From NCBI GenBank assembly GCA_026770705.1, contig JANJGN010000034.1:3596001-3660000 (forward strand): a DNA stretch of 64,000 bases, in the 5' to 3' direction. The translations under genes and the position numbers were made by a program. Within the stretch, counting starts at the first letter, position 1, and the number at the start of each line of letters is the position of its first letter. Shown piece by piece: positions 1,214 through 60,885 of the stretch. The DNA is from Isurus oxyrinchus. Taxonomy: Eukaryota. The notes beneath the pieces are model-generated. The model was given only the letters and a program-made list of their open reading frames with translations, was not told the origin of the DNA and ran no database searches.

Positions 1214-1240
1214 CTTTCTCTTTTTCTTTTAACTTTTCCT
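1214..1240 (-). CDS. micro-exon 24 (27 nt) EEKLKEKEK
   Basis: acceptor gtttctcgctctcag, donor gtattg. Confidence 0.88.
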
Positions 1241-4200
1241 CTGAGAGCGAGAAACATAATTACTTCAATATTGTTTTGAACATAATGCAATGACTGTGGC
1301 TGCAAGAAGGCCAAAACCAAGTTTTTTTCTGCTGTTTAACATGTGGGTGGGATATGGAAAAATGCATTTAATTGCAATAAAGTAAAAATAGTAAGGCACT
1401 TTGATTAAGGACGAAATGTCTGGTAACAATTTTATCCAACAGAGAGTAACGATATACGGAGAGCAGAGAGGCCATAAAGAACTACATACTCAGCTCAGTG
1501 AACATGTGACGAATAAGTAGAAGGTACAAGAGTTCTGAATTCAAGGACGGAAAGAAATATCAAAAACAGTAGATATGAAGTGATGAAATAGGCAGACATC
1601 CACTTAAATTATCTTAGCAGGGAACACAGATTAAGTGACGAGTTTTAGCCAAACCCCGAAACAATGTAAAGTTGATAAACACAAGTTTGGCAACCAAACG
1701 GGATTTGGGATATCAAAGCATTAGTTTCGCATTACTTCAAACAGAAGGAAAAAAGAAGATGGCATTCTGTCGATGAAGAATTTCGGATAGTGAGTGTGGA
1801 TAATATGAAGCAAGTGTGATGTTTTGGACAATCATGTGCATATGTCTTAAAATACAAGTACGTTTCACACATCTAATTATTTAGCCCCGCCTTTTTTTCT
1901 TACAGAACACGGAATGTTGCAATAGCTAATGTTTAACGGTAATTCCTGTTGTGTGTTTTGGTATCTCTTTTTCTGTCCATTCATTCATCCGGCTATCTAT
2001 CTATCTATGTATCATCTATCTATCAGTCTATCCATCTGTCAGTCGATCTATCAATCTATCCATATGCCTACCCACCTACCCATCTTACTGTCCGCCTATC
2101 TATCCACCAATCAATCTATACATTCATTTATGTAGCTATCTGTCTGTGTTCATTGGACGTTGCACCATATTTCTCTTTGTCAAAAATAACTTTTCCAGGA
2201 GTATCATCCAACACTATTTCCCAAAACACTTTTGTTTTTCTTCCCCTTAGGTTAATTTTTGAATTGTCTTGTGGACGCTAAAATTGGACTTCTCTGGTAG
2301 TGCATTTGAAAATTTAACTGCTTAGTTACTAACAACCTTGTTGTTCCATTCTGCTATATCCATACTAATATTTAAGCATTGAATTGGCATTTTCTGTTCT
2401 TCACTCATCCACAAAAGGTGACGGTTTCTCTCTATGTACCTGGCCTGGAGGCCTCCTGCTCTGTTATACACAAAAGACACGGATTTACCTTTCTCCTACA
2501 TGGTGGTAGACCCCCAGTTGCACAAACCTGGAAGCACCACTGAAGTATTGCATCTTGAACAATGTTCCCCTGTCTACCTTCTTACCTCTTCCAAAGTTTC
2601 AGCAGACCTCGAAAAGTCCGATACCCACTATTGGCTTTTCCATTTGAGACTGAACAAGGATTTCGTAAACTCCATCATAAATCTCTGGTTTGCTTTTGTA
2701 ACCGATTCCAGTATTGCTAAATCCCACGACCGTGCTTTCCTTTTTAACAACATTTGCAACTTGTGCGGTTTCCTTTAGCCACAGATGTGAACAATCTCAT
2801 TTCTCTATGTTGAAGCGCCCTCCCAATAATTGAGAAATTATACTTATTTTGCATTTGTTGGATAACCCTGGTAAAAAAGATGAATTCATAGCTATAGGCA
2901 TCAGCGCATTTCGCCTGCCACTTTTCTATCAGCCAAAAAAACATTCCTATGTTATTGTCGAATAAACTAGTGAAGTCCCAACACTTCATAATCCTTCCAA
3001 GTTTGATTCAGCTGTATTTGTTTCGAAAAACTGTANNNNNNNNNNNNNNNNNNNNNNNNNNNNNNNNNNNNNNNNNNNNNNNNNNNNNNNNNNNNNNNNN
3101 NNNNNNNNNNNNNNNNNNNNNNNNNNNNNNNNNNNNNNNNNNNNNNNNNNNNNNNNNNNNNNNNNNNNNNNNNNNNNNNNNNNNNNNNNNNNNNNNNNNN
3201 NNNNNNNNNNNNNNNNNNNNNNNNNNNNNNNNNNNNNNNNNNNNNNNNNNNNNNNNNNNNNNNNNNNNNNNNNNNNNNNNNNNNNNNNNNNNNNNNNNNN
3301 NNNNNNNNNNNNNNNNNNNNNNNNNNNNNNNNNNNNNNNNNNNNNNNNNNNNNNNNNNNNNNNNNNNNNNNNNNNNNNNNNNNNNNNNNNNNNNNNNNNN
3401 NNNNNNNNNNNNNNNNNNNNNNNNNNNATTACCTTCTGGCAACCGTTAATAGACACCCACCAATATTTTTGTTTGCTGTCACTCAGCAGGCTTCATATCC
3501 AAGCTTACATCTCCCATGGGTTCCCACTGAACTGTCAATCTCGTGGCAGATGTATGTCCTCTGTTCCCCAAACAGGAAGCTGTACTTTAGTGTAATCAAA
3601 CATTGATGGTACCGATACATCAGATAACAAAGTGAAACCCTTGATGTCCCTAATAAATAATCCAACAATGTTTTGGCAACTGTGATCACTTCTGTTTTGA
3701 TGATGTCACGCACCTGTAGCTTCGAGAGTTTTCTTCAAGCTTGCACATTCTGCAATTAAAAAAAAATATAGATTGCCACATTCTTCACACCAACAACAAC
3801 ACGATTGGATTAAACATTCAAAATTATTGATCACAAATTGTATAACCTTTCATGCATAATTTGGAGTACATTCCTCACAGTCGCCATGCGGCTTAGAGGC
3901 AGAATCCAATTTGTTGCTTTATTTAAAATAAGACAAAACAGTTCAAAGTGTTCAGTCAGGCCTCTATATTCTGAAGAAAACCGTAGCAAATAAAAAAAAA
4001 GTCCTCATTTATTATTTGAATAATACATTTTGCGATATGCACTGACTCTGTTGAGCATGATTGATTAGTGCATGCCAGGCAAGAGAATCAGCAGAATTTT
4101 TATTTATCTTCCTGTCGGCTCGACAGCCGTGCATGGTGCGGCTGGAAATAATAATGGGTGGATGACGTGCTGCCCGTTTCCATCAAACATAAATTCAATC

Positions 4201-7200
4201 CCAAACTCTAAATCTATTGGTGCTTATCGACGGAAGTGGATAAGATGCTGCTTATTTGTTTTTTTTTCATTTCCTTTTTAGACAAAATATAGGAACTAAT
4301 GCTGTGGTATCTTTTTCTTTTAATGACAAGAGCCAGGGATTATGTCTTTCAAAGACATTCATGATGGAATTTGCGTAAATCATGTAGTACTAACACCATA
4401 AATTAACGTGTCTGTTCAATGCTCGTTTGCAATAAATTCCATGTATGATCCATTGCCATAGGATTTTTCACAGTGCAGAATCAGTTCCTTCAGCACATTG
4501 TGCCAGGTTGACAATGCACTGCTATATTTAGGCACGTCGTCATGATTTGCTCTGCACACCAGGTCGAATTTCAATTTATTTACTGCTGGTTGATTAAAAA
4601 AAAGCTGTATTCAAACTGCTGCAAGCCAATTCACGTGATTAATAGGAAGTTACATCTTCAAAACGTAAACGATAACACTGATGTCTGGCTGGCATATTGA
4701 TTACGGATTTGCCCGGCTACTCAGGTAATCCTTGCCCAATGTTTCAGAATTTCACTTCTAATCTAAGGGAAATGTAAGTGTATTTTAATTGCTTGAACCT
4801 AGATTAAACGGGATACCTATACTCCAGGCAATACGATTATGGTATTTTATGTTGGAAAAAGAAAGAACAGTTTCTTTCCAAATGTTCTTCTGGCAATGCT
4901 AACCCCGTGTTCTTACATGGCCTGGACTATATTTAACTCTAGTCCAGACCAATATTTCCATTCTTAAATTTTCTCAAGATGCGTTCCATTCTAATCAAAA
5001 AGCGACTCACTAGAATTTCCTCGAGGCAACTTAATGGCAATAATTTAGTGGGTCAGTTAAGATGAACACCCAAATCCCGAAAACATCAACAATTTATAGA
5101 CATTGAAGGCATCTGATGTAATCTAAGCTCTCAAAGCAATTGACATGATAATTACTTAATATGGCCTTAGAACCCACAACGGGACTTTTCACCAAATGTT
5201 GACTTAAATAGTTTCTTCTAGGTGGGAGTTTCAGGGGTTCTGAGGGGCGCTGGGAATGATAGGTTGCAGATTGGCTACCGTCCATTTCTTGACTCAATCA
5301 TGCTGCCGCCAGTGTATGCTGCTCTTCAAGGTAATGAATTTGCAAGGAGTTGGATGAGGTGCTGTTCAAGCGGTCCTGTTTGCTAATGGTTATGTCAAGG
5401 TTCCTCCGTCTTTTTGGAACTGCAGATATCTAGGGTAGTTAAGGGCATGCGACCACAATCCTGGCCGGTGAATTGTAAAAGGTTTAATGTTTCGGGACGT
5501 GGTTAAACTCTGCAGAATTTGCAGCCTCTGGCATTCTGTCGTATCCAATGTCCTGTATAGCTAAAAAAAAAGTTATTTTCTGATTAATTGTAGCATCCTG
5601 GATTTTAATGATGGCAAATCAGAACGGCAAGCTACACTGAATTTGAAGAAGACATTGCTAGATATTCGATTGTTGGAGAGGAGGATTTTCTGGCACTTGT
5701 GTGACTTCCACACTACTTTCCATTTTATAACTTAAGCAGGGATAAGCATTACTGCTCTACTTATCCTGCTGGATAGAAAATATTTGATGTGGCATCTGAC
5801 AAAGTTTGTTCCTGAGGACCAACAATAAGTTTTTAGCCTAGAACCACATTAATGCTAAAAAGATTTGTCTATGAACACGAAACAAATTTCCATTGTGGTA
5901 GTGCATGTTCGCTCAGTTATTCCCAAGTAGGCCCACTTTTCTTGGGCGCTTTGATCCCACATTGTTTCAATTGCTCCTTTGATGGCAACGGCAGTGTATG
6001 TTAAAATGTCTCTCGAGTTCACCTCTGCGTCCTTGTTTTTACGAATTTTTTATTGACATGATTAGTCGATTGGCCCTGGAGGCAGCCAAATTGAATATTG
6101 GTTCAGCAATATCTACGCCACCAGCTCCATGAGCAACATTTGTGAAAGTTGTCCTGTTGCAGTTTCCCCTTGACACAATAACCTCTGAAGCTCATGCAGT
6201 AAGTTACCAAAGACAGCTGTTACTGCTGCAGTAAATGCCCTAAACTATTCCATAACATCATTTGAATTGAACCAAAATCACAATGTCTGCCATCTGTCTT
6301 GCTAGGCACCACAAGAGGAGACAACTATTCATCTTCACATAAGCACCCCTTATTGTTGCAAATGTTGAACCATTGAAAGAACGCCTTGACTCTTTCACAA
6401 CTGAGCTGGGAATACCCATCAATGTCGGTTTTTGGGCAGCAGCATTATTTGTTTTCTTATGTTTGTTGAAATCTACAACAACATTCAAAACAAATTCCTC
6501 AACTGTATGTCCTATGGTGTTATAATAAGAGTGTAATTAGTGGCAACCTCTTAGGAGTCTCTTGTACAACATAATAGATACCCAATACCACATCTGTCAT
6601 TGCTTCTGTTGTTTAATTGGACTTCTAAACTGTGAGCAGTGTCAATAAGTACCTTTCTCTTTTTCTCCCAAAGCGTTCACTGAGAGGGAGAAACATAATT
6701 ACGTCAATAATGTTTTGAATATCTTACAATGAACGTGGCTTCTATAATGCCAACGCTATATATTTCTTGTTGTTGTGGAATATGGAATGCGTTACCCAAA
6801 ATATTCAAATGCTTAATAGCAACAAAGGAAACCTGCATTTGTGAAAGCACACTTAACAAGGGAACATGCTTCATTGAAATTCTCAGCTGTGAAATCCGAC
6901 ATGAATAAGCATAGAAGTAAAAGAGGGGGCCAGGCGTGTTAGAAATCCAGATATGTGTTATGCAGGACCTGGTTCCATTATTACAAAAGGGAAAATAACG
7001 AGCTTGGGATATTGAGAGTCGAAATGCCATTGATAACCAGACAAGCAGATTAGGGCAACAATGTTTTAGTTTGTTCTCGAGATGAGTGTAAGGAGAGTTC
7101 TAAATTCATAGAGTACAAAAATCAAAGCATGTCGTTAAATGGAGAATGAATAAATAGATTGTGATGTGGATGGAACAATTGACATGGGAACATTGATTAA

Positions 7201-10200
7201 ACAACAAAGTTTGAGAAGGCATTGAACAAACAGAATGTCGATGTACCAAACACTTGAACAAAAAGGGCATTTGGGAAATGGCGGCATCTTTTTGCATTAG
7301 TTTAAGTGGAAGGATGATAGAGGTTGGATGATTTTCAATTGGGAAATTGAGTTAGTCAGTGTGGATAATGAGGAGGAAGTGCGACGTTTTTGACTGACAT
7401 CTGCGAATGCATTAACAGCATTCCTTTGTTCACATCTAAGTATTTCACCTGGTCTTCTTTAACAAATAACATGAATGGTTCCAGTCACAAAATTGGAACA
7501 GCTATTCTTGTTCTCTATTTGGTATGCACATATCTATATTTCTATCTATCTATCTATCGCTCTGTCTCTATCTAGCTATCTATCTGTCTATCTATTCCCA
7601 ATCTATCTCTGTAAGTATGTAGTTATTCATTTAATGCGTCATCTTTATTACCGTTGTGTATAATCTCAAATAAAGTGACATTTCCCGCTGTTTTCTAGCT
7701 CAGATTTGTTTTTCTTTTCCCTTTATCTGAATGTACTGATCAAATTCTCTTGTGGAGACCACAATTGACCATACCATTTCACAACCGCAGCAGTGCATTT
7801 CAATTTATAACGGCTTACTCTCTACCAACGTTTGTTTTTTTATCCACACAAATGGATGCTGAACATACATCGGCATCTTCTGTTCTTGACTCTTTCAAAA
7901 TACGTGATGTTTTCTCTGTATTTGCTTCGTTTATAGCCCTCGTGATTATAACATATATCGATACCAAACTGATATTAGCAACCTTCTACGTGGTATGATA
8001 CCCGCAGTATCATTGAAGCTCTACATACGGAATAACGTTCCCCTGCATACCATTTTAACTTAAAAAAAAGTATTGACTTCCTTCCAGAAGTGTGGTTCCA
8101 GAATTGGACAGGGTTTCTCAGTTGAGACGGAACGAGGATTTCTTAAAGTCCATCATAATTTCCTGGCTTTTGTGCTCGATTCCTGTATTAATAAATCCCA
8201 TGATCCCATCCTCCTTTTTAACCACTATGCAAATTGGAGAGTTCCCTTTAAACATACGTGCGAAATAAGCATTTTTTATGTGTTCATACACGTTCCTAAG
8301 ATATGGACAATTGTCTTTATTTTGCACCTACCAGATCTCCCGATGAAAAAAAAGTTCATGTTCACAGCTTTGAGTTTCAGTGTGTTTCTTCTGCCAATGG
8401 CAAATCAGTGAAGACCTGATGCCCAAGTGCTCTTGCAGTCGACTAGTTGAAGTACTCACATTTCAATGTTTGATCAGCTGCATTTATTTTGAAGTTGTTC
8501 CATCAGCTACAAATAATATATAAAGGTTGTCTTCTTATGACACTCCACCAGCGATAGTCAATCATCCATCAATGTTTTTTTTTATTCCTGTCACTCAATA
8601 GCCTTCTTATCCATGCCTGCATGGCCCTTTGTTCCCATTGGTAAATATTGAGCTGTGAATCTCTCGAGATGTTTGTGTATTCTGATCACCAAATAGGAAA
8701 TGATGGTTTAGTGTAACCACACATTGATGGTACCGACACATCAATTTAAAAAAAAGTAAAAATATTATGTCCCCACTGAATAATCCACCAACATTTTGGA
8801 GCAGGTTTCCACTTTTGTTGAAATGGTGTTACATACCTGCATCTTCGAGGTCTTTCCTCAACTTTGTTAATTCTGCAATTAAAATAACTTCGAATGTCAC
8901 ATTCATGTTGAATCAGCAACATAACTATTGCATTGAACATGTAAAATTATTGACCACAAATTGTATTACCTATAATCCATGACTTAGTTACACTTCACAC
9001 AGCTGCGATTAGGCTGAGATGCAGAATCCACTTCGTTGTTTCATTTAACGTCCAACAGAATAATGCAAAATAGCCAAAAGACCTCTGCAGACTGAACAGA
9101 ACACTAGCAGGTGAAAAAAAAACATCAGTTGTTTCCAAACAACGATCTTCCTGGCTCTGTTTAACAAAGGACGTTTAAGATACGCCTTGTCATTGTTCAA
9201 GGCGACCTATTAGTGCATGACAGTCGGAGAATCAGCTTAGTTTTGATTTTGATTTCTATAGGTTGGACAACTGGTCCATTATCTGGCCAGAAATAATAAT
9301 GGGCGGGCAACAGAATGCAACCCAATTCTTTCAAACATAAATTCGATCCCAAACGCTAAACCTATTGCTGCTTAATAACAGAGATTAATATTCTCCATTT
9401 TAATTTCATTTGTATATCACTATACTGCAACGTATACAGAAGTCCTTTTATTTTCTTGGGAAGAAGTCGGCGATTCCATGTTTCAATGAGACATTCATCT
9501 TGGAATTTCCGTCAGTCCTGAGTAATGCCTCAGCATGTGTTCACTTATCCGTGCAATATGAATTTCCATTAAGACCTGTAACATTGCCATGCTGATCATG
9601 GTATCTCCGCAACCACAGGATCTTTCACAGGACCGAAGCAGGCCCTTCAGCCCATTGTGACATGATGACAATGCTGGGCCATACTCGGTTGCGCATCTCA
9701 CAATTAGAGCAGCAGAATGACAGCGCATTTACCGATGGGTGCAGAAGGATAAGCTGTACTCAAATTCCTGCATGTCAATGGCACATGATTATTGTAAAGT
9801 TTTGCCTGCAAATCTGCAAGTTACACATGATGGCATTTTGGCACAGTGATTATTGATTTTCTTGGCTAATCAAATATGCCTCGCCACAGGTTCCGGAATA
9901 CCAGTTCAAATCTGATAATGAAAGCAGGAAAGTTGATGTCATTCTAATTGATTACATTTATATTGAATCTGATGTCAATGCTGCTGGTAGGACAAGAGGT
10001 GAAAAGAGAAAAATATCTTACCAAATGTTTTTTTTTCCGGAAATGTTAGCCACTTGTCCTTATAATTCTTGGCATGTCTTTGACCCTATCTATCTGCAAT
10101 GGATGCATTCTAAAACGGTCTCAACATTCTGTCTATTTTAAACAAGGAGCTGACTCAGCAGAAACTTCTCAAGGGATATTAATGGTATCAATTAAATGGT

Positions 10201-34200: not shown

Positions 34201-35369
34201 GCCAATGATATTGGAAGCAATTTTTTTTTATGAGAGGCATTTATTCCGAATAATAATAAGATATTGATGTTGCAAAACTGAGAGAAGAAATTCCATAGAA
34301 AACTGCATATACAGATAAAGACAGCACAGTTATGACTTTGACGAAGGACGAGCGGAATGAGCAAGAGCTCTGAACGTATGCAACACCTTAAATGTGGAAT
34401 TTTCTGGCCCTACAGTTAATGAACTAGATGCAAATATTGACAGATTTTGAAAATCGGGAGAAATACATTAAAAATAAATATCGGAAATGTTGCCAAAAGA
34501 GTAGGCAATGAAAGTCAATGTACAGAAGACGTAAACCCAGTGGATACACGTGTTTTATGAGCAATGATTTCCATCCGGTGAACTAGAAGGAACAAATAGG
34601 ATGGTAGTCCAGCGAAGCAGAGATTGGGATTTTCAAAGGGAAGCATGAGGAGTAAGTCCGGTTTCTTCTGTAGCAATGTACACAATTATGAAAGAAAGAA
34701 CTATCGCAATCTTGACCATTGTTCCAAGCTTTTGTAATGCAGATCAGGAAGCATTTGAGCGAATAATCATAGATCTTCTTTAATGGTCAATATTCTTAGA
34801 GACGCCCCGAAATATTTATCCACAACCTGACCACGAAAAGTTTTTGTTCAAATTAGAAGACAAAATGAGTTTCTCAGTTGATCTACTGATCTACCTACCA
34901 TGTAAATTCGTATCTATATTCCTATATATGTACATAAGTATCTATTTATTCATCTATCTATCTATCTATCTATCTACCTATCTATCTTTCCATATAGCTA
35001 TNNNNNNNNNNNNNNNNNNNNNNNNNNNNNNNNNNNNNNNNNNNNNNNNNNNNNNNNNNNNNNNNNNNNNNNNNNNNNNNNNNNNNNNNNNNNNNNNNNN
35101 NNNNNNNNNNNNNNNNNNNNNNNNNNNNNNNNNNNNNNNNNNNNNNNNTCTAAAACAACATTTCAAGTCCAATAAAAACAAAGAAAACTGCGGATGCTGG
35201 AAATCCAAAACAAAAACAGAATTACCTGGAAAAACTCAGCAAGTCTGGCAGCATCGGCGGAGAAGAAAAGAGTTGACGTTTCGAGTCCTCATGACCCTTC
35301 GACAGAACTTGATTTCGAGTCCAAGAAAGAGTTGAAATATCAGCTGGTTTAAGGTGTGTGTGCGTGTGT

Positions 35370-35400
<31 letters not shown>

Positions 35401-50400: not shown

Positions 50401-53400
50401 CCTGAAAATGACGAAATAAACAGCAAATATCTGATAACGCTTGAAAGAGAACAGAACCAGTGGACATCAATTTATTGTAGTTAGCAGGAGATAAATTAAG
50501 GATTTTCACGAAAAAAATTCTCAAATATTAGTGACAAATTGGAATACTTTTTCTCAGGCAGTAATTGAGGTCAAAGGAATGTACTAATATGTTCTCCTCG
50601 ATCTTATGCATCGTAGATTGTTGGCTTCAGCTGGACGCAAATAAAATGGAAATAAAGGTCAGCATTGGTAATGTTCCTAATGTTGCGATATACTGATTAA
50701 TTTTGAAGACAACGATGATATGCAGGTGTATCGACAATAATGTATGGCAGCACCTCGTGAACTGTCCCAGATTTGTCGGGAATTGATGATTAACCTCCAG
50801 GATAATGCTGCTAACAAACACGCATATAAGTAGTAGATGTAGTAAACATATGCCTTTGGAAATTATATTTTTGCAAAAATCTTTGTTATTAGTAATTGTA
50901 TTAGAGAATAAGATAATTTATCTGCTTGGCTGGCGCCCACAAAATATTATTTTGGCCTGATAAATAAGGATAGTTTTCTTATGCTATTATATCCTGGGAC
51001 GAAAGTTTTGGTGGCAAGCACAGTACAGGTGCCGAATAAATAATTGTCGTTCAAAAGAGCTACAGTTGATTGGTTGACTGTGCACCTGTAGTCCTGTTTA
51101 AGGAGGACATTCCAGGGTGTTGTCGCAGGGAATTGAAGATAAAAACGGTTTATTTCCAAGCCACTATGCTGTGTGACTTGAAGATAAAGTGCAAATATTC
51201 CCAAGCTATCTGCTACAGATCTGATCGTAGTTCCTCTAGGCCATATAGTGAAATGGTTTTAAACGTCATTTGGAAAAAAAAATGGAGAATTGCTGCAGTG
51301 CATCTGTTGTGCGGTTCCACGCTACTTGCACTGTAGGTCAGTGGTTCAAGCAATGAATGTCGATGGCGATGGATGGAGTGCTATTAAGGTAAAAAGTTTT
51401 GGTATATATTATGCCATTTTTCTGGATGATGTAAGTATATGCAACTATTACGTCAATGGGCGAGCCTTCACTAACACTCCTGACTTGTGGCAGTTAAATG
51501 GTATATAGGTTTTGGCGAAGTCAGTAATGGTGTTATTCACTACCGAATTCCCAGACTCTGGCCTAGTCTTAGAGCCACAGTCTTTTTTTGTCGCTAGCAC
51601 ATTTACGTTTCTAGTCAATTGTTGTCAACAGGATTCTACTTATCTGAGGCTCAGGAAGTTCAATGCTCGTGAAGTTCAAGAGGAGCTTATATTCTCAGTT
51701 CAAAAACAGAATTACCTGGAAAAACTCAGCAGGTCTGGCAGCATCGGCGGAGAAGAAAAGAGTTGACGTTTCGAGTCCTCGTGACCCTTCGACAGAACTG
51801 TTCTGTCGAAGGGTCATGAGGACTCGAAACGTCAACTCTTTTCTTCTCCGCCGATGCTGCCTGATCTGCTGAGTTTTTCCAGGTAATTCTGTTTTTGTTT
51901 TGGATTTCCAGCATCCGCAGTTTTCTTTGTTTTTATCTTTATATTCTCAGTTGTTGGAATTGCTCATTGCCTGGCATTTGTGTGCCGTTAATTTTACTTA
52001 TCAATGCAAGCCTGCATGTTGCTACAGGTTGTGGTGAATATGCACTCGAAATTCTTTATACCTGAAGAGTGACGAGTGGAATGAAACACCGTGCAGTCAT
52101 CAGTGAGCATGTGGAATATTGACATCCTGAAGTATGGATGTTATGAAAGCCAACAGAATTGTTTTAGCCAGTGCCTTCAATTATTCTTTGATACTGCTCG
52201 CAGAAAAAAATAAGACAATGAGGATTGCTATGTGTGATGTTAGGGACAGAATGAGAAGTCGATCATTGATCATCAGATAGACGTGTCTGACATGAAGAGT
52301 GTGGCAAATATTTACATTATTGTGCTGGGATTGCCCAGCATTGCGGAATCATCTCTGTTACTTTATTTCATTTGCTTTTAAAAGCACACTAGCGTACACG
52401 GCCAGATGGGACAGAACTAACAGGCACTTATGTAGTAGTATAGCAATTATCCACTATTTTCAAGATGCAATATTTTGGCATATTTGAAAATAGATAGCTG
52501 CCGCATTATTTGTCATTGTGTTTCATGATGAAGTGCACTGCCATTCGCTTAGCTCCCAGTCCAAGTCAGCAAGTACCTTTCTCATTTTCCTTCATCCTTT
52601 CGTCTGAGAGGGAGAAACATAATTACTCATATAATATGTTGGAAAACACTGCAAAGAATGTAGCATCAATGATTTAATATCTGTACCGTTTGGGTTATTT
52701 TACAAGAAGATAAGCACATCCAATCTCGTGACATGATTAAGAGAAACAACAAAGAAAACGTGCCTCCAAGTAATGATATGTGACCTAGGAAGAGGTTTGA
52801 GTCAAACTCCGAGCCGCATCATCAGACGTCAATGACACACAAACAAAGTCGGGCCTCAGTAGGTAATTATCCTCAAATCGTGCTGAGAGATACTATGCAA
52901 ATAAAATCCAGAAGAGCCTGGCGAAGTTCAGACAGTGAGAGTATAAAAAGAAAAACAACTAAATGCGCAAACAGATGAAGATCAGCAAAGGATGAGTTGA
53001 ACGAACAAGCGCCCTAAATTTATCGAGAGCATAGAATTCGTAATGTGCTGGCCGCACAAATATGAACTGGGTAGAAATATGGCTAGAATTTGAAATCAGC
53101 TACAATTAGCTAATAAAGTAAGATGTTGTCAGAAAAGAAATCAATTAATATCTATGAACGCAATTTCCATTCTGAAGAGTATGTATTTTGTGTCTGATAA
53201 TATGCTTTCTTGTGCAGCTACAGAGGTTAACATCATATTTGTAACCATTAAGTATGCAATGTTTAGCAGTGACGCTCTGTAGCTTTGCAAAAGCATTACA
53301 TTTAAATCTTGTCTGCTTACTCAGTTAACTCTTGGAGTTGTACACCGACGAGTATTACGATGCTTACCTGATTTTTTTAAAGTTTTTTCGCACTTGGATA

Positions 53401-55219
53401 ATTCTGGATTGTGGCAGAAAACGGTGAAAATGTTTCTATCGAATCATTTCCTAGTGTCTACTTTATAGACTCATCGAATCATAGACTCATTAGGGCCGAG
53501 TGGAGATTTTTAGGTCCATCGCTTCATTATGGCTTCTTGTAGAAGAATCAGTTAATCAAAATCTACCTTTCTATAATCGTAGCTCTGAACGTTCATTTTC
53601 TCCAAGTGCCTATCCACTTTAATTCTGAATTAAGACATCGTTACCGCTTCTAGCACCCTAAGCAGCTGTGTGTATTAGCACTGACAATACAAAGAGTCGT
53701 GCACATTCATTTTGCGCCTCTTATGCAAATCCTTCAGTTTCTGACAGCTGTCACTAATGTGAAAACATTTTATTTGTATACATTCTGCAAACATCTGATA
53801 ATGTACTACACATTTATGACCTCTCTCCTCATTTTGCCATGATTCAGTATGAACGATCGCAGCTTCGCCAATATAACTGCACCAGGGCCCTTTGTTTTCT
53901 GCCCTTAAGTCAATTATTCCAATGTAATTTGACACTTATCCTACTATTCCACAAGCCTCATTTTTCTTACTTGGTCAGACGCCGTTTAACATTGCTTTTG
54001 ACAAATTTATTTGCTCTACATTCATCAACCATTTCTTCTCTTAATCCAAACGTCATTTCGATTTAGCAAAGAACCCTTTAAAAGCTCTTTTTCTTTCCCC
54101 TAAAAAGGAATTGCTCTCTCACATCATGAAAAAAAAAGCGGATTAGCGAAACAGGTGCTGTCCTTTCCAAAACAGTTATGGATCTTCTCACTTAACATTA
54201 ACATTTCCAAGTGACTCTTAATAATTTTCTTGCTTCTAGAATCTGAAGCCAAACTCACCGTTGACTTTAAGGAGATTGGCCAGTCGTTACTACGAATATC
54301 TTTGCATACTTTGTGATTAAAGCTATCGCATTTAGCACCCAACAATTCTGGGGCACGTCTCCCTTATCTATGAAAGGTGAAGATTTATGAAAAACCCTGA
54401 AGATTCCTCCACCGCTACTGATATTATCAACCTGAGATGCAAGCCTTGCGCCCCAAGTGAGATACCATTCTAGGAATTGCGATCCTTTCCGGTGCTTTAC
54501 CTTCAATTATTCACCTCGTTCATTACTTATACCATCACTGCTCCTATGAATATATTATCCACTCCTCTTCCTTAGCATGTCTCGATGCACAGTTATGGTT
54601 CTCGATTTCCCAAGCTCCTGCAATCAGACAACACTTTCTTTGTTCAGAAAAAGAGCCACGCCGCCTCTTACTGAACGTTTTATATTTAAATTCCCTAAGA
54701 ATGTTGTTGGCTTACATTTTATGTACACAGCCATTCTACTCTTCTACCCGCACTTCCCCGTTAACCTACAGTCTCAACCTATTGAAAATAGGTTCCTTTA
54801 TTCTTGAAGAATTCTCCCGACAGGCATCATACACCCTCCTTTTTTCGGATCACCAAGTTCTCTATCTCCCAAGAGACCTGCCCTCCCTGTCCTTCTTTCC
54901 TTTACTACGTTTAACCCAAGTCGAGATTTACCTAGTTGGCATCCAAAACATGTCAGCCTCAATGACAACTGACTGTCTCGACTCCTTCTTTTCCCTGCTA
55001 TTCGCCGTTTTATTTAGTCCCTTTGTCCAAATCTCCTGTAGTCCTTTTGAAGTTAGCCTTCTTGCAAAGTCACTCTTGTACTTTAGATTACTCTTTAACC
55101 ATCTCCTTTACTACTTGAAACATTCTGATTCTTTGATCATGCTCAAGATGAATTTAGTCTCACATGCGTGGAAACATTTTCAACATGTCTCGTCTGTCAA
55201 CAAAATTCGACACACAACC

Positions 55220-55258
<39 letters not shown>

Positions 55259-58200
55259 GACACATACGCACGTGCATAAAAAGATGCATGATTGGACAAG
55301 AAGATATACATACAAACAAACTCACATATGTAAAACACACACAAACAGACCCACACACAAACACACACGCAAAAAAACACAAGGACATATTTTAAACGCA
55401 CACACACACACATCCTGTCTGTCCTCTCATTTGTTCAGCATTCCCTTGCCATTTTTGTACTGTGTTTTAGTTAAATATAACACTACCCCAGTCTCCCAAC
55501 ACGGGGTTTCTTGATATCATGCAATTCAGACGTATATGCAGCGACGCACGTGTGACCCAATCAAGGTTGTATGGCAGTTTAACAAAATCTGTGACTTTTT
55601 TTCCTGGTTAACCAAAATGGTGTTGATGAAATGAATATCGTGGGGAAGGGAGAGCTTTCATTAACCTGATAGTAAGTATGCGTTGTTATGTTTATCTTCC
55701 ACTGCTTGTTCGCTTTCCTATCCCCAAGATCATAGTGCATTTTCTCTGCCTATTTCTGAAGTGAGCAGCATGGTTTCAGTTCGGAGTGATCTAGTTCGAT
55801 ATTGCTCTGCATGAGGGGGCTTCCTAATGGTAGAACTTCACCCAATATTGACTATTCGCATCTTAACAAATTCTCACAGTTAGGAATGTTCATTTCACAG
55901 AGCCTCTTGTCGATTGCAAATTAAATATGAAGTGGAAGACATTAACAACCGTATCTGCACGTTAAGATTAATTTATTCACGTACCTTCTTTCAGTTTAGT
56001 TATTGCGGCCCCTGTTCGTGGCATACAAATGGCAAACAAGCTTTAATCAACAGTAACTGATTTCCAACGGCATGCCACTTATTGAATGATTGTAAAGGGG
56101 AACATAATATATTGCTGCTCTAACTTGCTGAGGTAGACATTCATCTCCGTAATTGTGCTAAAGGTATGTTTTGAATATGTTGTAAGATAGGCTGGAAACA
56201 CAGATCCCTGTAGTTTACGGACATGAATATCGGCTGTTATCGTAAAATGTGGCCGTGTCAGCTTGATTGTTTACTTCCGTTTCCCATGAAGAACTTAAGA
56301 CAAGGATATCAGAATAAAATAACAATAATAATACATTCTGTTCTTCAGCATACATGAACAGGAACATTTTAAATCTATTTACATATAATGTCAAAGCATG
56401 ATTCATGGATTATTACAGCGCAGAAAGAAGATTTTTTTTTTCACTCGCATCTGGACCGCCAGCCTTGAAGTACAGTGCATTGAGCAACAGGTTGCCTTCG
56501 TTTCCTGAACGTGCTCTTCAAGCTGGTAGATATCATACATTTGAATCTGCGGAGGAAGGTGTTTTGGGGATTTACTGCAGTTAATCTTGCGAATGTTATA
56601 CACCGCTTCCCACTCGCTTGTCCAGGGAGTCCATTTTTGAGGTGGTGGATGTGGTGCCTTTCACGCAGCTTTCTTTATCCTCGATTGCATCATACTACTT
56701 GATATCTTTCGATCTTCACGCATACAGTCAATTCAGGTACATTTAATCAAAATCCAGATGGTTCCCTTGTGGATAGTATGCCTGCTTTAGTAGGCACTCG
56801 GGGCAGAATCCCCAGTCTTTCACTTGATCTCGTAGCCACAATCTTTAAATATTCACTCCAGCTAATACTCTGGGAAATCTTAATCGCCAGGGCATTGACG
56901 CTGGGTGATAGGCAAATGCTAAAGCTGTTAAATGACAAAGGGAGAAGACCGGCTTCTCTTGTGTTTGAGATGGCCATTGCCTAGCACACCTGTGGCGCAA
57001 ATGTTACACGGTTCTTTCCAACCCAAGCTGACTATGGTGTCGTTCTTGCGGATCAAGTGCAATGATGGCTTCAGTATCTTCGGAGTACTGAGAAACAATG
57101 AACACATTGAATGGCTGGTGAACATCGCACTTCGAGCATTCTTATGGATGGGAGATCATTGGTGATCGAGTGAAGATGGTTAGACAGAGAAGAAAAATCT
57201 GAAGAACGCCCATAATGATTTATTGTGGATACATCGGTTGACCTTCAACAGTCGGACAACAACAAGTACCCCTTTTCTGCTCTGTATGAAAACTAATTGT
57301 ACAGGCCACTCAGCGGCCTGCCACACAACCACGCATTGCCCTGTGCCCCCCGCCATGAACACCAACACTCAGCAAAATGCTGCATGGACGATAAGGACGC
57401 ATAAGATCTTGTTAGAGCTCTATGGTCCATGATTGAGGCATGCCGATAATCAGATCCACAGTCGGATTGCCCTTGGGGAATGGAATTTGTGCCAGTGTAA
57501 CTTGGTGTAAGTGCAATTCCATAACACTGGCAGTGACACCCGATAAAATTGCTCATTTTCGACCTTAGACTGATGGTGTGGTTAATGGTGGACTTCATTT
57601 GAACTCATTTCGTAGACAGGGCGGTATTTGATAATTTGAATAATGTGTCAAAGAGTGCTCCCGTTCACTTGACTAGGTGCGGAGCCAGTTTTGGATTAAT
57701 AGACTTCTGCAGTGCATCACTATGTATCATGGCCCCTTGGCCATTGCTCTAACCAGTGCCTCAATTCATCGATTATTATCTTTCCAAGTGATTCGAACCT
57801 TCAGGAGAATGCCATCTGTGAAGATGGGAAAGTCAACATATGCTAGAGGCGGATTATCCACTCAGTACATTTGGCCAAAGACGACCGCAAACATATCTGC
57901 CTTTGTTGTACTAACGTGTTGTGCTCATTGGCTATTATGATGTGCATATTTATGGAGTCTAATCCTGCGGTTTATTGTTGACAACAGCTGCAATTTCCGT
58001 CAATGCAGCCGACAATCAAAGTGTATTTTCGACTTCATCAGCTTTAAACCTGTATGATGAAATACCTTTCTCATTGGCTTCTAACTTTGCTTCTGTGAAG
58101 GAGGAAGATAGCAACATTGATAAAGTGTTGACGGATATTCCTACCCTTGCAGCATGAATCAAGGTAATTGCATATATTTTCCTTCATTTCAGATGTGGAA

Positions 58201-60885
58201 AGAAATATCCCATCATGGTATGTGATCAATGAGGACAATAGCGGACATGAGTACTTTCAAAAGCAAGTTTTACATACGAACACGTGTTAATAGAATTCCC
58301 AGTCGTACAATGAGATGGTCCAGATTTTAGATCAGAGGAAAGGTATGTCAGTCGGTCAAATGCTTAATGAAGAGCGGTCAGTTTCAAGCCAAATGCGAAG
58401 GAGCAAAGCGAGGCTGATTTCTTCAGTAAGTGGAGATGAAAGTAACTGGCAAGATTCAATAAATGTATCACTGTGCAGGATGATGTGTGGAATGCGCACA
58501 AGGTTTCAACTTGTGGACAATAGTGAATTTCGAATGTGCTGGACGTTCTAGCCGGGAAATAGATAAAAGTGATACCAGAGTTGAAAATCTGGACACAGGT
58601 TTTAACATCATTCATTTTCCGGACCAGGCACTGTCGGAACTCGATGAGCAATACTTTTCTGCTGTGCCACAACTCAGCTTTAGTTTTCAGGAAGGAGGAG
58701 TTGGGGCACAGCATAACGTTTCTGTAGGAGCTAGATTACATGGAGGCAGGTGCATGGAAGCCTGTCAAACAGAGAATTTGCGTTATCAAAGTCTGCCTTT
58801 TCAAGATATTTAGGTGAGATTTTTTGGAAAACAATATAGCAAAATTGTTACATAAACTTCAATCCGTCCCACGCCACCCACAAACCGAGCCCCTCCCCTT
58901 CCCCTACCCCCAAACTCCCCACAGACCCTCCACTACCATGAATGCAGAGGCACGCAGGCAAACAAAGGTGCTTACGGGTTTGCCGCCGGCTTCGTTAATG
59001 AAGATGTAAGGAGATTTTTGATCTTAAATGTGAATTCTATTAAGAGTTATTTATGGTAATAGGAGGAATGATCTTTAAAGTCTGCCAGGTGAAGTCCACA
59101 CGATATTTTTTCCTTTTCACCTAAGAGGTGTAAAGGAGTCTCGTACCATCAAGTTATCTGAAAGACTATGAAGCAGACATTCCAATAGCCTTCAGTTATT
59201 GCAGTCCACCTAGAATTATTCTGGGAGTTTGTTGTCAATAGCATTCAAGATCAGTATTGCAGAGATTACTAATTGCTGAAACAAGCATATAGGTTGTTTG
59301 TGGCTAATTATCTGTGATGTTTATGTTAAGAATCAGCTAGTGGAATTAGGTCAGCAAAGAATGATAAGAGCCCTGTATTTGGATAAAGGCATCAGTGATG
59401 AGGCGCAGTGTGAACCATGTTCATCTGCTGGCTTGCTTGATATGCTTTAAGTTATTTATTTTCAATAATTTGTGGGTCAGTAATCAAAGGTTCACGCATT
59501 TGTACATGAGTTGCCCGGTAATTCAATTGCAAAAATATGGCTAATTATATTATAGCGACTGTTCAGAGCTTGATAATTAAAAGCAACAGAATAATTAATC
59601 AGTTTACCTTCTTCTCTATCTTGCAGAATTTCACCTAATAGCAAAAAAATATTTCCAGAAATGTCATTTTTCAAGGAAATTAATCGCGTTTTTGGGAAAT
59701 TCCAGGTGTCGTAAGGGAATACATCAATTATTAGCTAATTCGTTACAATACAAACATTTGATGACATTTCAGAGAGCATTTCAAATTGGTCGTAAAAGTA
59801 CATTCACGGTCACCCCTCAGAATCTGTGAGATTTGTAAGATTTATCTTCACCACCCCGCACCATTACTGGAATGCACATCCTTTTTCTGACACTCTTTGA
59901 AAAAAAAGTTGCTCTGCTTTGGTTTGCAAACATATCGGACTGCTTTCCTTTAGTTAATATCTTTGGAGTATTATCAATCTACAATCTATAACCCAACAAC
60001 TGTGGGGGATTTTAAGCACAGTGTCCCAGGTTACTCACGTGATTCTTTCAATGACATTTGACACTTGGCAAATTCTAAATCATAAAAAGAAAGGAATGGA
60101 ACAAGTTTTTTTTCGTATCTAACTCATTAATATAGCTGTTTTAAAACCTGAGAGTAAAGTTAAATTTTCTACGCAGAAATGTCCCATTTATTCAGCAGTT
60201 CATTGCTGCTCTGTATTCTTCACCAGTGTCTGTTCACAAGGTAGCCAATTTCATTCATTCAGCATACCCATCAATACATTTTCCATCATCTGCTATTGGA
60301 TCACATGCATGCATGTCTGCAATTAACCACTACTGCATCCATCACTTACGAGTTCACCTGCTAGCCAATGGCCTTGCAAAGATTTAAATTCTCATTTACT
60401 CTTTGTGTTCTTCCTGGTTCTTTGTATCAGAAGCCGCATTTTCAACACGTGGGAATTTCTCTCCTTTATCTTCCCTACCAGACCCTCTTTTCAGTTGCAC
60501 TAGATTCGACTCACTATCCCAGAACAAACAGCTGGACAGTCATGAACTTTCAGTTAGGTATCTTTCCTGTCAATCCTCGTTAAAAGGCCCAGTGACTGCA
60601 ATTCGCGGAGAGCAGAACATTTTACATTCACCAAACGTGGCATCAACAATTCATAAAACTTTTCAACATAGGTTCACTGCTTTCCAGTTCTAAGCATTTA
60701 CATGACCTCATCGCACTCAGATAATTTCCTCAATTCAGATCTCTATTTAAAAGCAAGAATTTTATTTTGATCTAATGGATTGCCAATTATTTGAAATTGA
60801 ACAACATTTAGACAGTTCACACGGACGGACTAGCAAAGCACTGAATATAAATTCTTACCTCCTTTCAGTTCATGTATTGTGTGCT
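1214..60885 (-). CDS. Internal portion (24 micro-exons, 720 nt, ~240 aa) of an unidentified long coiled-coil protein gene; probably continues beyond both window ends
   Basis: 24 AG/GT-flanked segments (14x27, 8x36, 1x21, 1x33 nt), all on one strand and all phase 1-1. Spliced in order they give one stop-free E/K/L-rich frame with heptad periodicity. Exons are mutually homologous. Confidence 0.9.
1995..2145. repeat. degenerate (TATC)n microsatellite, unit 1
   Basis: tatctatctatc and variants. Confidence 0.85.
3036..3427. other. assembly gap
   Basis: run of N. Confidence 1.
3714..3749 (-). CDS. micro-exon 23 (36 nt) ECASLKKTLEAT
   Basis: acceptor ttttttttaattgcag, donor gtgcgt. Confidence 0.88.
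6653..6679 (-). CDS. micro-exon 22 (27 nt) VNALGEKEK
   Basis: acceptor gtttctccctctcag, donor gtactt. Confidence 0.87.
7530..7610. repeat. degenerate (TATC)n microsatellite, unit 2
   Basis: same relative position as in unit 1. Confidence 0.85.
8837..8872 (-). CDS. micro-exon 21 (36 nt) ELTKLRKDLEDA
   Basis: acceptor gttattttaattgcag, donor gtatgt. Confidence 0.9.
11796..11822 (-). CDS. micro-exon 20 (27 nt) EATLAENDK
   Basis: acceptor gtttctccatctcag, donor gtattt. Confidence 0.87.
12637..12822. other. assembly gap
   Basis: run of N. Confidence 1.
12823..12895. repeat. (TATC)n microsatellite, unit 3, running into an N-gap
   Basis: tatctatcta tract adjacent to gap. Confidence 0.8.
14111..14146 (-). 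CDS. micro-exon 19 (36 nt) ELAKLKKSLDSA
   Basis: clear paralog of exon 17; donor gtgggc; weak acceptor tttattttaaaaaag. Confidence 0.75.
17023..17049 (-). CDS. micro-exon 18 (27 nt) GERLKGKDI
   Basis: acceptor tttttctccctctcag, donor gtactt. Confidence 0.87.
17855..17985. repeat. (TATC)n microsatellite, unit 4
   Basis: atctatctat repeats. Confidence 0.85.
18868..18966 (-). mobile_element. Solo Penelope-like terminal fragment with decayed hammerhead motif, present in unit 4 only
   Basis: minus strand gttCTGATGAagagccatacggacttGGAACgttaac...ctctccacagatgc; similar to the PLE ends at 35170 and 42770; absent from the other units. Confidence 0.75.
19227..19262 (-). CDS. micro-exon 17 (36 nt) ELAKLKKSLEAS
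   Basis: acceptor attgttttcaatgcag, donor gtgcgc; peptide visible inside ORF 19027..19437. Confidence 0.88.
21861..21893 (-). CDS. micro-exon 16 (33 nt) AVFEEKLAKDE
   Basis: acceptor atttccactttgtctag, donor gtaaga. Confidence 0.82.
22080..22250 (+). mobile_element. decayed 3' end of an L2/CR1-type LINE
   Basis: resembles the tails at 29780-29970, 47150-47320 and (inverted) 48225-48400; ends in an A-run. Confidence 0.55.
23922..23948 (-). CDS. micro-exon 15 (27 nt) EKKLEDQDK
   Basis: T-rich tract ending ctttataatag, donor gtaacc. Confidence 0.87.
23990..24129. repeat. ~70-bp direct tandem duplication (2 copies)
   Basis: tgcaagtgatccygggtattt(t)gttaattttctgtgaaggtcaggawtcagccaa occurs twice. 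Confidence 0.9.
24265..24364 (+). mobile_element. ~100-bp Penelope terminal fragment with 10-bp TSD
   Basis: tgaagagtcatacggaatcgaaacattaac...ctctctacag; flanked by attaaggtat at 24255-24264 and 24365-24374. Confidence 0.75.
24435..24470 (-). CDS. micro-exon 14 (36 nt) ELSTCQKTIQEF
   Basis: acceptor ttctttctgttttttag, donor gtaaga. Confidence 0.88.
25493..25519 (-). CDS. micro-exon 13 (27 nt) ADIIDGLTK
   Basis: acceptor tttcttgttttccttacatag, donor gtatgt. Confidence 0.83.
27296..29690 (-). mobile_element. decayed CR1-clade LINE (endonuclease-RT ORF2 fragments)
   Basis: ORF fragments FDDTKTGGKV (ADDTK motif), KANRLLSIIVRG, KELADELN..YTMEDASNIP, DEEFIKC; many frameshifts. Confidence 0.85.
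29760..29975 (+). mobile_element. L2/CR1-type LINE 3' tail
   Basis: cactccctccaccacaaacgcacagtg...aaatgctgacctagccagccatgcccacat. Confidence 0.6.
30470..30496 (-). CDS. micro-exon 12 (27 nt) DCSKAMKKS
   Basis: acceptor tttgcatgacacacag, donor gtaagt; paralog of exon 7. Confidence 0.82.
31750..33800 (-). mobile_element. decayed L2/CR1-type LINE RT fragments (probably two pieces)
   Basis: ORFs FEIKAAFGSLWHQGVIAKLESLGIRGK (D.xKAFD.VWH motif) and YYTISLYSIIIKVMEGI (YRPISL..KVME motif). Confidence 0.8.
33925..33951 (-). CDS. micro-exon 11 (27 nt) AENLKQKEK
   Basis: acceptor catctcattctcag, donor gtaatt. Confidence 0.88.
34880..35001. repeat. (TATC)n microsatellite, unit 5, running into an N-gap
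   Basis: tctatctatctatc. Confidence 0.85.
35002..35148. other. assembly gap
   Basis: run of N. Confidence 1.
35170..36210 (-). mobile_element. 5'-truncated Penelope-like retroelement (GIY-YIG endonuclease end plus terminal repeat)
   Basis: ORF 35736..36224 CNTCPF..FTCISPNLVYCIRCSQCGLLYIGETKRKLGDRFAEH..VACHFN..GLNIEF; internal (TG)n, G-run and (GA)n at 35354-35432. Confidence 0.93.
35271..35309 (-). ncRNA. minimal type I hammerhead-like motif in the Penelope terminal repeat
   Basis: agtt-CUGUCGA-a-GGGUC(augag)GACUC-GAAAC-GUC-aact; stems I and II pair; core differs from CUGAnGA at A6. Confidence 0.6.
37389..37424 (-). CDS. micro-exon 10 (36 nt) DLANLKKNLDIA
   Basis: acceptor tttgttttaataacag, donor gtgtgc; homolog of the repeat-unit 36-nt exon. 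Confidence 0.88.
38790..39720. mobile_element. highly decayed LINE (L2-like) fragments
   Basis: purine-rich sequence resembling the reverse complement of 25780-26800; no intact ORF. Confidence 0.4.
40184..40210 (-). CDS. micro-exon 9 (27 nt) DEQITGKDA
   Basis: acceptor tttgctttgattatgcgcag, donor gtaaag. Confidence 0.8.
41060..41420 (-). mobile_element. tRNA-derived SINE of chondrichthyan type, with LINE-shared tail
   Basis: tail catggaatgtgcgagccgctggcaacgccagcattt matches the LINE tail at 48235; body motifs ccttcctgaaaggac, ttttaattccagat, ggtggaaattgaac (B-box-like). Recognised from memory. Confidence 0.6.
41600..42870 (+). mobile_element. older, frameshifted Penelope-like element
   Basis: ORF pieces LPASCQFNSPSCSHAHMSVLGL and DTLVLSCHHNSLHI match the other PLE copies; C-run at 42478-42497; terminal ctgaaga..tacggactcg..ctctccacagatg. 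Confidence 0.85.
43802..43822 (-). CDS. micro-exon 8 (21 nt, single heptad) EKNLKGK
   Basis: acceptor cttgtgcttttctataacag, donor gtaaag; LKGK motif shared with exon 18. Confidence 0.75.
46420..47320 (+). mobile_element. decayed L2/CR1-type LINE 3' portion
   Basis: same family as 31750-32800 in opposite orientation; ends in the shared tail. Confidence 0.65.
48225..48680 (-). mobile_element. 3' end of an L2/CR1-type LINE
   Basis: attcattcatgggatgtgggc...cccatccctagttgcccttgagaagttggtggtgagc...cttcttgaactgctgc. Confidence 0.75.
49040..49066 (-). CDS. micro-exon 7 (27 nt) DCSSKLQTL
   Basis: acceptor ccgttttcatttcacgcag, donor gtgaga; begins ATTGCAGCA like exon 12. Confidence 0.85.
51701..51938. 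mobile_element. Palindromic Penelope terminal-repeat insertion with 14-bp TSD
   Basis: arms 51701-51798 and 51800-51897 (98 bp, 3 mismatches, 1-nt spacer); TSD ttatattctcagtt at 51687-51700 and 51939-51952; nearly identical to 35170-35308. Confidence 0.93.
52577..52603 (-). CDS. micro-exon 6 (27 nt) DERMKENEK
   Basis: acceptor gtttctccctctcag, donor gtactt; same flanks as exons 18 and 22. Confidence 0.88.
53368..53403 (-). CDS. micro-exon 5 (36 nt) ELSKCEKTLKKS
   Basis: acceptor ttttctgccacaatccag, donor gtaagc. Confidence 0.88.
53470..55150 (-). mobile_element. decayed CR1-clade LINE
   Basis: catagactcattaggg..aggtccatcg 3' tail; ORF remnant NDWPISLKSTV..KKIIKSHLE..HNCFGKDSTCFANPLFF (RPISLTS..QHGF.KG.SCLTNL-like). 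Confidence 0.7.
55209..55412. repeat. (CA)n microsatellite and CA-rich low complexity
   Basis: cacacacaca runs. Confidence 0.9.
56590..57960 (-). mobile_element. highly decayed LINE fragments (same family as 31750-33800)
   Basis: colinear similarity of motifs by eye; no intact ORF. Confidence 0.5.
58066..58092 (-). CDS. micro-exon 4 (27 nt) EAKLEANEK
   Basis: acceptor atcttcctccttcacag, donor gtattt; flanks homologous to the repeat-unit 27-nt exon. Confidence 0.87.
59608..59634 (-). CDS. micro-exon 3 (27 nt) REILQDREE
   Basis: acceptor atttttttgctattag, donor gtaaac. Confidence 0.82.
60039..60074 (-). CDS. micro-exon 2 (36 nt) EFAKCQMSLKES
   Basis: acceptor cctttctttttatgatttag, donor gtgagt; similar to exons 5 and 14. 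Confidence 0.88.
60859..60885 (-). CDS. micro-exon 1 (27 nt) xHTIHELKG
   Basis: acceptor gttttctttgtcgctgacag, donor gtaaga, phase 1-1; positional homolog of exon 13. Confidence 0.8.

Follow-up and report, generated by a model that had tools for sequence, protein, structure and literature searches.

Guinea-pig enterophilins combine long heptad repeats with a B30.2 domain and have no Ig domain; they are cytoplasmic, mammalian and much shorter than the protein predicted here. In butyrophilins, heptad exons of very small size precede a B30.2 exon, according to the available text of two reports (PMC6790196, PMC4046983). In chicken BG, a long coiled coil is assembled from 21-nt exons, of which different paralogues have between 13 and 36 (available text of PMC4046983). 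Vespryn (ohanin) is secreted, carries a B30.2-like domain behind a signal sequence and is a precedent for an extracellular B30.2 domain (PMC4566206, accessible part).

Gene A of Isurus oxyrinchus, as predicted here, shares with butyrophilins (BTN3A1, BTN2A, ERMAP) a single terminal B30.2/SPRY exon and short heptad exons directly before it. Butyrophilins have few heptad exons, IgV/IgC domains and a transmembrane exon, whereas gene A has more than 120 heptad exons, and neither a credible IgV/IgC exon nor a convincing transmembrane exon was found for it. Like the chicken BG genes and the zipper protein, gene A has a long coiled coil of many tiny exons. BG encodes a single IgV domain as well as a membrane segment and is built of 21-nt exons, whereas gene A uses 36+27 nt and several times more exons, ends in B30.2 and yielded no Ig domain. 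TRIM proteins (RBCC-SPRY) carry RING and B-box domains; a motif search of 864 kb gave no match to either, and 28 family proteins showed no RING pattern. Vespryn, likened here by description, is a snake venom protein of ~12 kDa that lacks a rod and whose N-terminal extension is short. Its signal peptide lies almost directly at B30.2, whereas more than 1,200 predicted rod residues intervene in gene A, where the signal peptide is putative. Stalked lectins of the CD23 type have a C-terminal C-type lectin domain, whereas the gene A array ends in a SPRY exon with a stop. Gene A resembles the butyrophilin/BG tail in its working but is a member of neither group: no Ig domain was found, and exon size and number differ.

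The original prediction had named butyrophilin/BG tails, CD23 and triadin as possible relatives. The first lead was borne out; closer relatives than CD23 and triadin were found. The last 9-aa module of a ray homologue aligns with the BTN3A1 segment just ahead of B30.2. Butyrophilins are the top PDB matches for the ray homologue, ranked above TRIMs, and the PDB matches of gene A's own SPRY domain are TRIMs and butyrophilins mixed. The deep forks of the SPRY tree do not separate the family from butyrophilins, and an AlphaFold model of the SPRY alignment is of low confidence (pLDDT 49.6).

The window, i.e. the whole stretch of DNA analyzed, comprises 64,000 nt (C34:3596001-3660000) of a 4.98 Gb genome. 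The exon list was rebuilt independently and agrees with the earlier one in count, bounds and length: 24 minus-strand segments with AG/GT borders run from 60885 down to 1214, nine of 36 nt, fourteen of 27 nt and one of 21 nt. Joined in phase 1, they yield 723 nt and 240 codons without a stop, while the two alternative frames contain 28 and 9 stops; the coding share of the span is 1.2%. The heptad patterning claimed for the peptide was also reproduced (contrast 0.569 versus 0.274 +/- 0.034 in shuffles, equalled by none of 500). The exons, including three probable additions, are as follows.

60859..60885, minus strand: 27-nt phase-1 exon (splice scan, external matrix)
60039..60074, minus strand: 36-nt phase-1 exon, Cys at heptad d (splice scan, external matrix)
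59608..59634, minus strand: 27-nt exon (splice scan, external matrix)
58066..58092, minus strand: 27-nt exon (splice scan, external matrix, intron-flank profile)
55985..56011, minus strand: 27-nt exon (splice scan, external matrix)
53368..53403, minus strand: 36-nt exon, Cys at d (splice scan, external matrix)
52577..52603, minus strand: 27-nt exon (splice scan, external matrix, intron-flank profile)
49040..49066, minus strand: probable extra 27-nt exon outside the 24, homologous to 30496-30470 (splice scan, period analysis)
44883..44909, minus strand: 27-nt exon (splice scan, external matrix)
44042..44077, minus strand: 36-nt exon, Cys at d (splice scan, external matrix)
43802..43822, minus strand: 21-nt exon, one heptad, bringing its own period to 28 aa (splice scan, period analysis)
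40184..40210, minus strand: 27-nt exon (splice scan, external matrix)
37389..37424, minus strand: 36-nt exon (splice scan, external matrix, intron-flank profile)
33925..33951, minus strand: 27-nt exon (splice scan, external matrix, intron-flank profile)
30470..30496, minus strand: probable extra 27-nt exon outside the 24 (splice scan, period analysis)
25493..25519, minus strand: 27-nt exon (splice scan, external matrix)
24435..24470, minus strand: 36-nt exon, Cys at d (splice scan, external matrix)
23922..23948, minus strand: 27-nt exon (splice scan, external matrix)
21861..21893, minus strand: probable extra 33-nt exon outside the 24 (splice scan, period analysis)
19227..19262, minus strand: 36-nt exon, ~5-kb tandem unit (external matrix, intron-flank profile)
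17023..17049, minus strand: 27-nt exon, ~5-kb tandem unit (external matrix, intron-flank profile)
14111..14146, minus strand: 36-nt exon, ~5-kb tandem unit (external matrix, intron-flank profile)
11796..11822, minus strand: 27-nt exon, ~5-kb tandem unit (external matrix, intron-flank profile)
8837..8872, minus strand: 36-nt exon, ~5-kb tandem unit (external matrix, intron-flank profile)
6653..6679, minus strand: 27-nt exon, ~5-kb tandem unit (external matrix, intron-flank profile)
3714..3749, minus strand: 36-nt exon, ~5-kb tandem unit (external matrix, intron-flank profile)
1214..1240, minus strand: 27-nt exon, ~5-kb tandem unit (external matrix, intron-flank profile)

When the window was scanned with a weight matrix derived from exons outside it, 24 matches appeared on the minus strand and none on the plus strand; 23 of these are open and correspond to listed 27/36-nt exons, and one contains a stop. 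At generic splice scores >3 (550 and 530 candidates overall), 27-nt candidates number 17 on the minus versus one on the plus strand, 36-nt candidates nine versus none. Strong candidates by size amount to 22 minus versus 0 plus for 27 nt, 23 versus 1 for 36 nt and 5 versus 5 for 21 nt. Three exons were probably missed by the 24-exon list (49066-49040, 30496-30470 and 21893-21861), and those at 49066 and 30496 sit in homologous duplicated DNA. Without them, the eight 36-to-36 periods of the window are mixed and include two +2 shifts; with the three added, all are 0 or +4 modulo 7, a sign that the exons may be used constitutively and in order. A +4 shift is an ordinary coiled-coil stutter. An extra 21-nt AG/GT candidate at 2460-2440 (minus strand), between the exons at 3749 and 1240, would preserve the heptad register. 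Three N stretches (725 bases in total) overlap none of the 24 + 3 exons; two of the three adjoin TATC runs.

Throughout gene A, positions 2, 5, 9 and 12 of the 36-nt exons are hydrophobic in 100, 95, 91 and 60% of 43 exons, and position 4 of the 27-nt exons in 78%. From these positions it follows that 36+27 nt represent three heptads. The 36+27 nt alternation, originally noted as matching no known gene, is real and is explained as this three-heptad unit. Periods of 21 aa make up 27/42 in gene A; counted from the 27/36-nt set alone, 10/42 periods are neither 0 nor +4 modulo 7. Position 5 (d) of the 36-nt exon is Cys in 19/43 cases and in 15/18 within the middle region. All modules are phase 1-1, and G is the last base of 120 of the 123 exons, so that duplication or skipping should keep the frame. 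At the junction, one of the residues E, D, A and G is present in 116/122 cases, and a stop arises at the junction codon in 78 of 15,006 exon pairs, taken in any order. N-glycosylation sequons are not enriched (4 versus 5.1 expected). With a coiled-coil rise of 0.148 nm per residue, ~1,250 residues would form a rod about 180 nm long.

The gene had been described as built entirely from 24 micro-exons and encoding 240 aa. This is not so: gene A comprises at least 123 exons of 27/36 nt and a terminal B30.2/SPRY exon.

Window 1..64000, minus strand: interior of predicted gene A, which extends from C34 ~3997802 down to 3474119; the array runs on both sides
C34:3474636-3474119 (L033:8636-8119), minus strand: terminal B30.2/SPRY exon of gene A, outside the window, 122 kb beyond
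C34:3997802-3997772, minus strand: candidate leader exon of gene A, outside the window

At a strict threshold, 123 open 27/36-nt exons (~1,236 residues) were detected on the minus strand and none on the plus strand over 523 kb. The terminal exon is in phase 1, is assigned to B30.2/SPRY by Pfam (PF00622, E 3e-18) and is accompanied by a stop and AATAAA signals. B30.2 exons had been among those suggested for inspection in the flanks, and it is this SPRY exon that terminates the array; it is the only one in 1.3 Mb scanned, with none further inside the array. Gene A is predicted to be one gene of ~520 kb with ~1,500 residues, and it is almost certainly real. Splicing of the modules is well supported by homologue models and selection; exon order and inclusion are assumed, and no transcript of Isurus oxyrinchus shows the joins. 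Contigs of four runs from the same species over window positions 43000-62000 gave repeat-driven signal alone among the matches listed; in four runs no contig matched positions 57650-62000, and no RNA data set was listed for 52000-61500. These RNA results are evidence neither way. The depth of run contigs is very high at 51700-51930. Dispersed retroelement-like repeats with broken reverse-transcriptase-type frames occupy window positions 62300-64000, 35200-36000 and 51700-51930.

Whole intron-exon units have been duplicated in tandem, at ~5 kb and ~10 kb. The tandem units of window 1-20600 and of L021-L024, with a period of ~5.1-5.5 kb in the window, contain one 36-nt and one 27-nt exon each; the ~5-kb units often carry a TATC microsatellite. 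An older ~10-kb duplication relates window 53159-43600 to 34523-23737 at ~58% identity. Within it, the 21-nt exon at 43822 corresponds to the 27-nt exon at 23948. Just upstream of the latter, two tandem copies of a 69-bp unit are located at 23990-24130. Profiles made from intron flanks alone retrieved the 36-nt unit 12 times and the 27-nt unit 14 times. Each of these 26 units located by their introns holds an intact exon (20/20 among the non-seed units); in a neutral-drift simulation, the intact fraction was 0.57 at 10% change and 0.39 at 17%. Alignable introns are ~68% identical (49/66 pairs alignable). The dN/dS is 0.67 for the 36-nt copies and 1.16 for the 27-nt copies; residues outside the core are barely constrained, and the surface evolves almost freely. 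Conserved length, frame and core with a drifting surface would be the pattern expected of a spacer rod.

Five close SPRY exons are located on contig C34, at 2.709 (minus), 3.474 (minus), 4.817 (plus), 6.396 (plus) and 7.497 Mb (plus). The genes are named C, A (the gene of the window), B, D and E, respectively. A same-strand micro-exon array precedes each SPRY exon, and the cluster covers 4.8 Mb. Sense and antisense exons number 57 and 1 in 292 kb for C, 123 and 0 in 523 kb for A, 19 and 0 in 109 kb for B, 47 and 1 in 289 kb for D, and 36 and 1 in 254 kb for E; control tiles outside the cluster gave one match in 140 kb. Each array would represent one gene, spanning approximately 0.74 (C), 0.52 (A), 0.82 (B), 1.55 (D) and 1.04 Mb (E). 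Exon numbers extrapolated from 13-39% of each gene are 145-176 for C, 143-225 for B, 251-339 for D and 148-221 for E. Titin has 363 exons. Genes A and B are arranged head to head. Between them lies a 432-bp inverted repeat (L054:4011-4432 and 5316-5747, 88% identity), which was rejected as a first exon and resembles a decayed dispersed repeat (40 matches).

A lineage-specific modular coiled coil in phase-1 micro-exons had been proposed, and the proposal stood: the homologues with a named source belong to sharks, rays and a chimaera and to no other group. All named members looked up are chondrichthyan (P0105 was outside this check), and the family occurs in Scyliorhinus (two species), Chiloscyllium, Cetorhinus, Narcine, Hypanus, Leucoraja and Callorhinchus. 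The peptide had been regarded as lacking a recognized match. Relatives do exist as mis-named RefSeq models, while it holds that no study was found. XP_042192744 ("nuclear-pore anchor-like"), XP_038668997 ("TRIM39-like"), XP_055510696 ("TRIM69-like") and XP_069797409/11 ("A33-like") share the SPRY subfamily and the 9/12-residue modules of gene A; judged by these features, the mis-named models of cartilaginous fishes are true homologues. The names are automatic, and the models are mostly 3'-end fragments, many of them short (200-460 aa). The catshark protein XP_038668997 is the orthologue (72% in SPRY, sister in the tree at 99/97), and its model has modules like the last micro-exons of gene A ahead of SPRY. 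Residues 1-120 of the catshark RefSeq model P0001 resemble retroelement-derived sequence and would then reflect an error in the gene model. Callorhinchus XP_042192744 (1,697 aa) is a full-length model: its N-terminus is hydrophobic, a long rod follows, and the SPRY domain is of the gene A type. The gene A 12-aa profile matched its rod 17 times, versus 0.83 in shuffles (maximum 4 in 200) and one in the reversed sequence; four long multi-SPRY control proteins gave 0-1 matches.

Isoform pairs that differ by an exact internal 9-aa block are present in RefSeq for Narcine (two genes), Scyliorhinus and Callorhinchus. Among nine isoform comparisons, four show an internal 9-residue block alone, two such a block plus an N-terminal difference, one a difference of 6 residues and two a difference at the N-terminus alone. 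RefSeq isoforms normally rest on RNA alignments. Pfam detected SPRY/PRY alone above weak noise in family proteins, and none of 28 proteins with the family motif showed a RING or Ig pattern. An Atlas search with the catshark homologue led to butyrophilin-like clusters at 0.86-0.88, which is a lead. A literature search with thin coverage of subscription journals found no paper on the family. It is not described in the available text of PMC4046983, PMC6790196, PMC12841164, PMC4566206, PMC4768133, PMC11979771 and PMC11788884.

The leader-like first exon of gene A (C34:3997802-3997772) has a consensus donor and adjoins conserved non-coding blocks of B. Its pattern was met once in 990 kb of control DNA, by criteria set after the candidate was seen. 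A matching leader exon was not found for paralogues B, D or E. Another leader candidate, within B at C34:4009863, was dropped because it has no counterpart in D. Paralogues B and D share a conserved 111-nt phase 1-1 exon, whose peptide starts with a short run of small/hydrophobic residues followed by Glu. The heads of B, D and E have two conserved non-coding blocks in common (L054:7321-8824; C34:3997321-3998824), and in one of these a splice donor is shared. A coding function of these blocks was rejected, as no reading frame is kept; possibly they represent a promoter and an untranslated first exon, back to back with the gene A leader candidate. Skate XP_055510696 and the chimaera models open with 11 residues whose hydropathy averages 2.9. 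These hydrophobic runs are short, with a best 19-residue mean of 1.5-1.6. In chimaera XP_042192744, a net charge of +5 follows the stretch, which also fits an uncleaved anchor with a cytoplasmic rod, and dibasic R-x-K/R-R sites are present at residues 18 and 60. By inspection, 3 of the 28 proteins with the family motif have a leader-like start, and the N-termini of P0001, P0003 and P0009 look like read-through into introns or repeats. Database N-termini being often unreliable in the family, that of the skate could be an artefact too. The head exons of gene A resemble the chimaera/skate N-terminus weakly (best shuffle p 0.03 in one of eight comparisons, BLASTP E 2.5). For IgV/IgC exons, 864 kb and the heads of D and E were searched by motifs, by phmmer and with an IgV profile of 9 sequences, and no credible match was obtained. 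A control search with an Ig query recovered three Ig frames from the flank; the profile missed these, so its sensitivity is limited, and gave one weak flank match (E 0.006). A motif search of the 864 kb yielded no RING or B-box, and the heads of A, B and C yielded no convincing transmembrane exon.

A dead or chance origin of the array, either as a pseudogene or by segmental duplications copying exon-like words, is most improbable. It would fit the dN/dS near 1 of the 27-nt copies and a regularity owed largely to the ~5-kb duplications, but against it stand the 26 units, all intact despite the divergence of their introns, an open SPRY exon, a complete strand bias and the homologous models with splice isoforms in relatives. 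Improbable as well is a splicing repertoire, or several shorter transcription units, in which each mRNA would take a subset of modules and many shorter rod-plus-SPRY proteins would result. The isoforms without 9-aa blocks, the many short family models, the rarity of junction stops in any order and the irregular periods seen with the 27/36-nt set alone (10/42) agree with such a repertoire; the 1,697-aa full-length model and the three overlooked exons, which bring 8/8 window periods into register, argue against it. It is partly compatible with a secreted rod.

An intracellular location of the same gene and rod is a possible, if rather unlikely, alternative. The N-terminal stretch would then be an uncleaved anchor or absent, and the cytoplasmic rod with its B30.2 domain would serve as a long tether, either cytoskeletal or immune-sensing. 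In butyrophilins and BG, the parts encoded by B30.2 and heptad exons are cytoplasmic, according to the available text of PMC4046983 and PMC6790196. The basic cluster of XP_042192744, the majority of family models without a leader and the lack of sequon enrichment point in the same direction. Against it stand the hydrophobic stretches, which are short and in paralogues B and D interrupted by Glu, the regular Cys at d, and the search of the heads of A, B and C, which gave no credible transmembrane exon. On balance, a secreted, disulfide-linked coiled-coil rod of ~180 nm with a B30.2/SPRY domain at its tip, probably derived from a butyrophilin tail, is the somewhat favored explanation. A butyrophilin-like ancestor would have lost its symmetric Ig and membrane exons, joining the leader to the heptad exons, and the heptad-exon-plus-B30.2 tail would have been expanded by duplication of symmetric phase-1 exons. 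Modules duplicated or skipped in frame would render the rod length variable in evolution and by splicing. The short leader exon would bring the chain into the secretory path, and cysteines at core position d may form a disulfide lock between neighboring chains. Such rods could serve as long multivalent spacers or cross-linkers bearing B30.2 heads in a secretion or matrix. We infer secretion from sequence features.

More tentatively, and at somewhat less than even likelihood, the five genes of 0.5-1.5 Mb in 4.8 Mb may constitute an unrecognized chondrichthyan family of secreted, disulfide-locked giant coiled coils, composed of a leader exon and a butyrophilin tail. The largest would reach 250-340 or more micro-exons by extrapolation, near the 363 exons of titin, and length would change in steps of 9/12 residues by duplication and splicing. 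The proteins may form a polymer, structural or for recognition, that is a major part of a secretion specific to sharks. The family is apparently unstudied in cartilaginous fishes. Standard annotation mostly reduces its genes to a SPRY fragment with a TRIM-like name, and megabases of shark coding locus are thus probably mis-annotated. In this family, a short butyrophilin tail would have turned into rods of hundreds of nanometres, encoded by genes with an extreme number of exons. Should the family be secreted, the B30.2 proteins gain a large extracellular class, and sharks, rays and chimaeras would have in common a polymer that is a candidate for a material or an immune role.

Neighbors of the cluster (L175, L177-L179, L169) include an Ig gene, a cobalamin-binding protein gene and a tectonic-domain exon; myelin-associated glycoprotein is among the top PDB matches of the Ig gene exon. 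The GC content is mostly 0.43-0.56 in the sampled flanks and 0.37-0.46 in the cluster. Two more distant SPRY exons, at C21:89722236 and 91348272, scored above the rest and mark a possible second family locus; both sit among >100 clustered SPRY exons.
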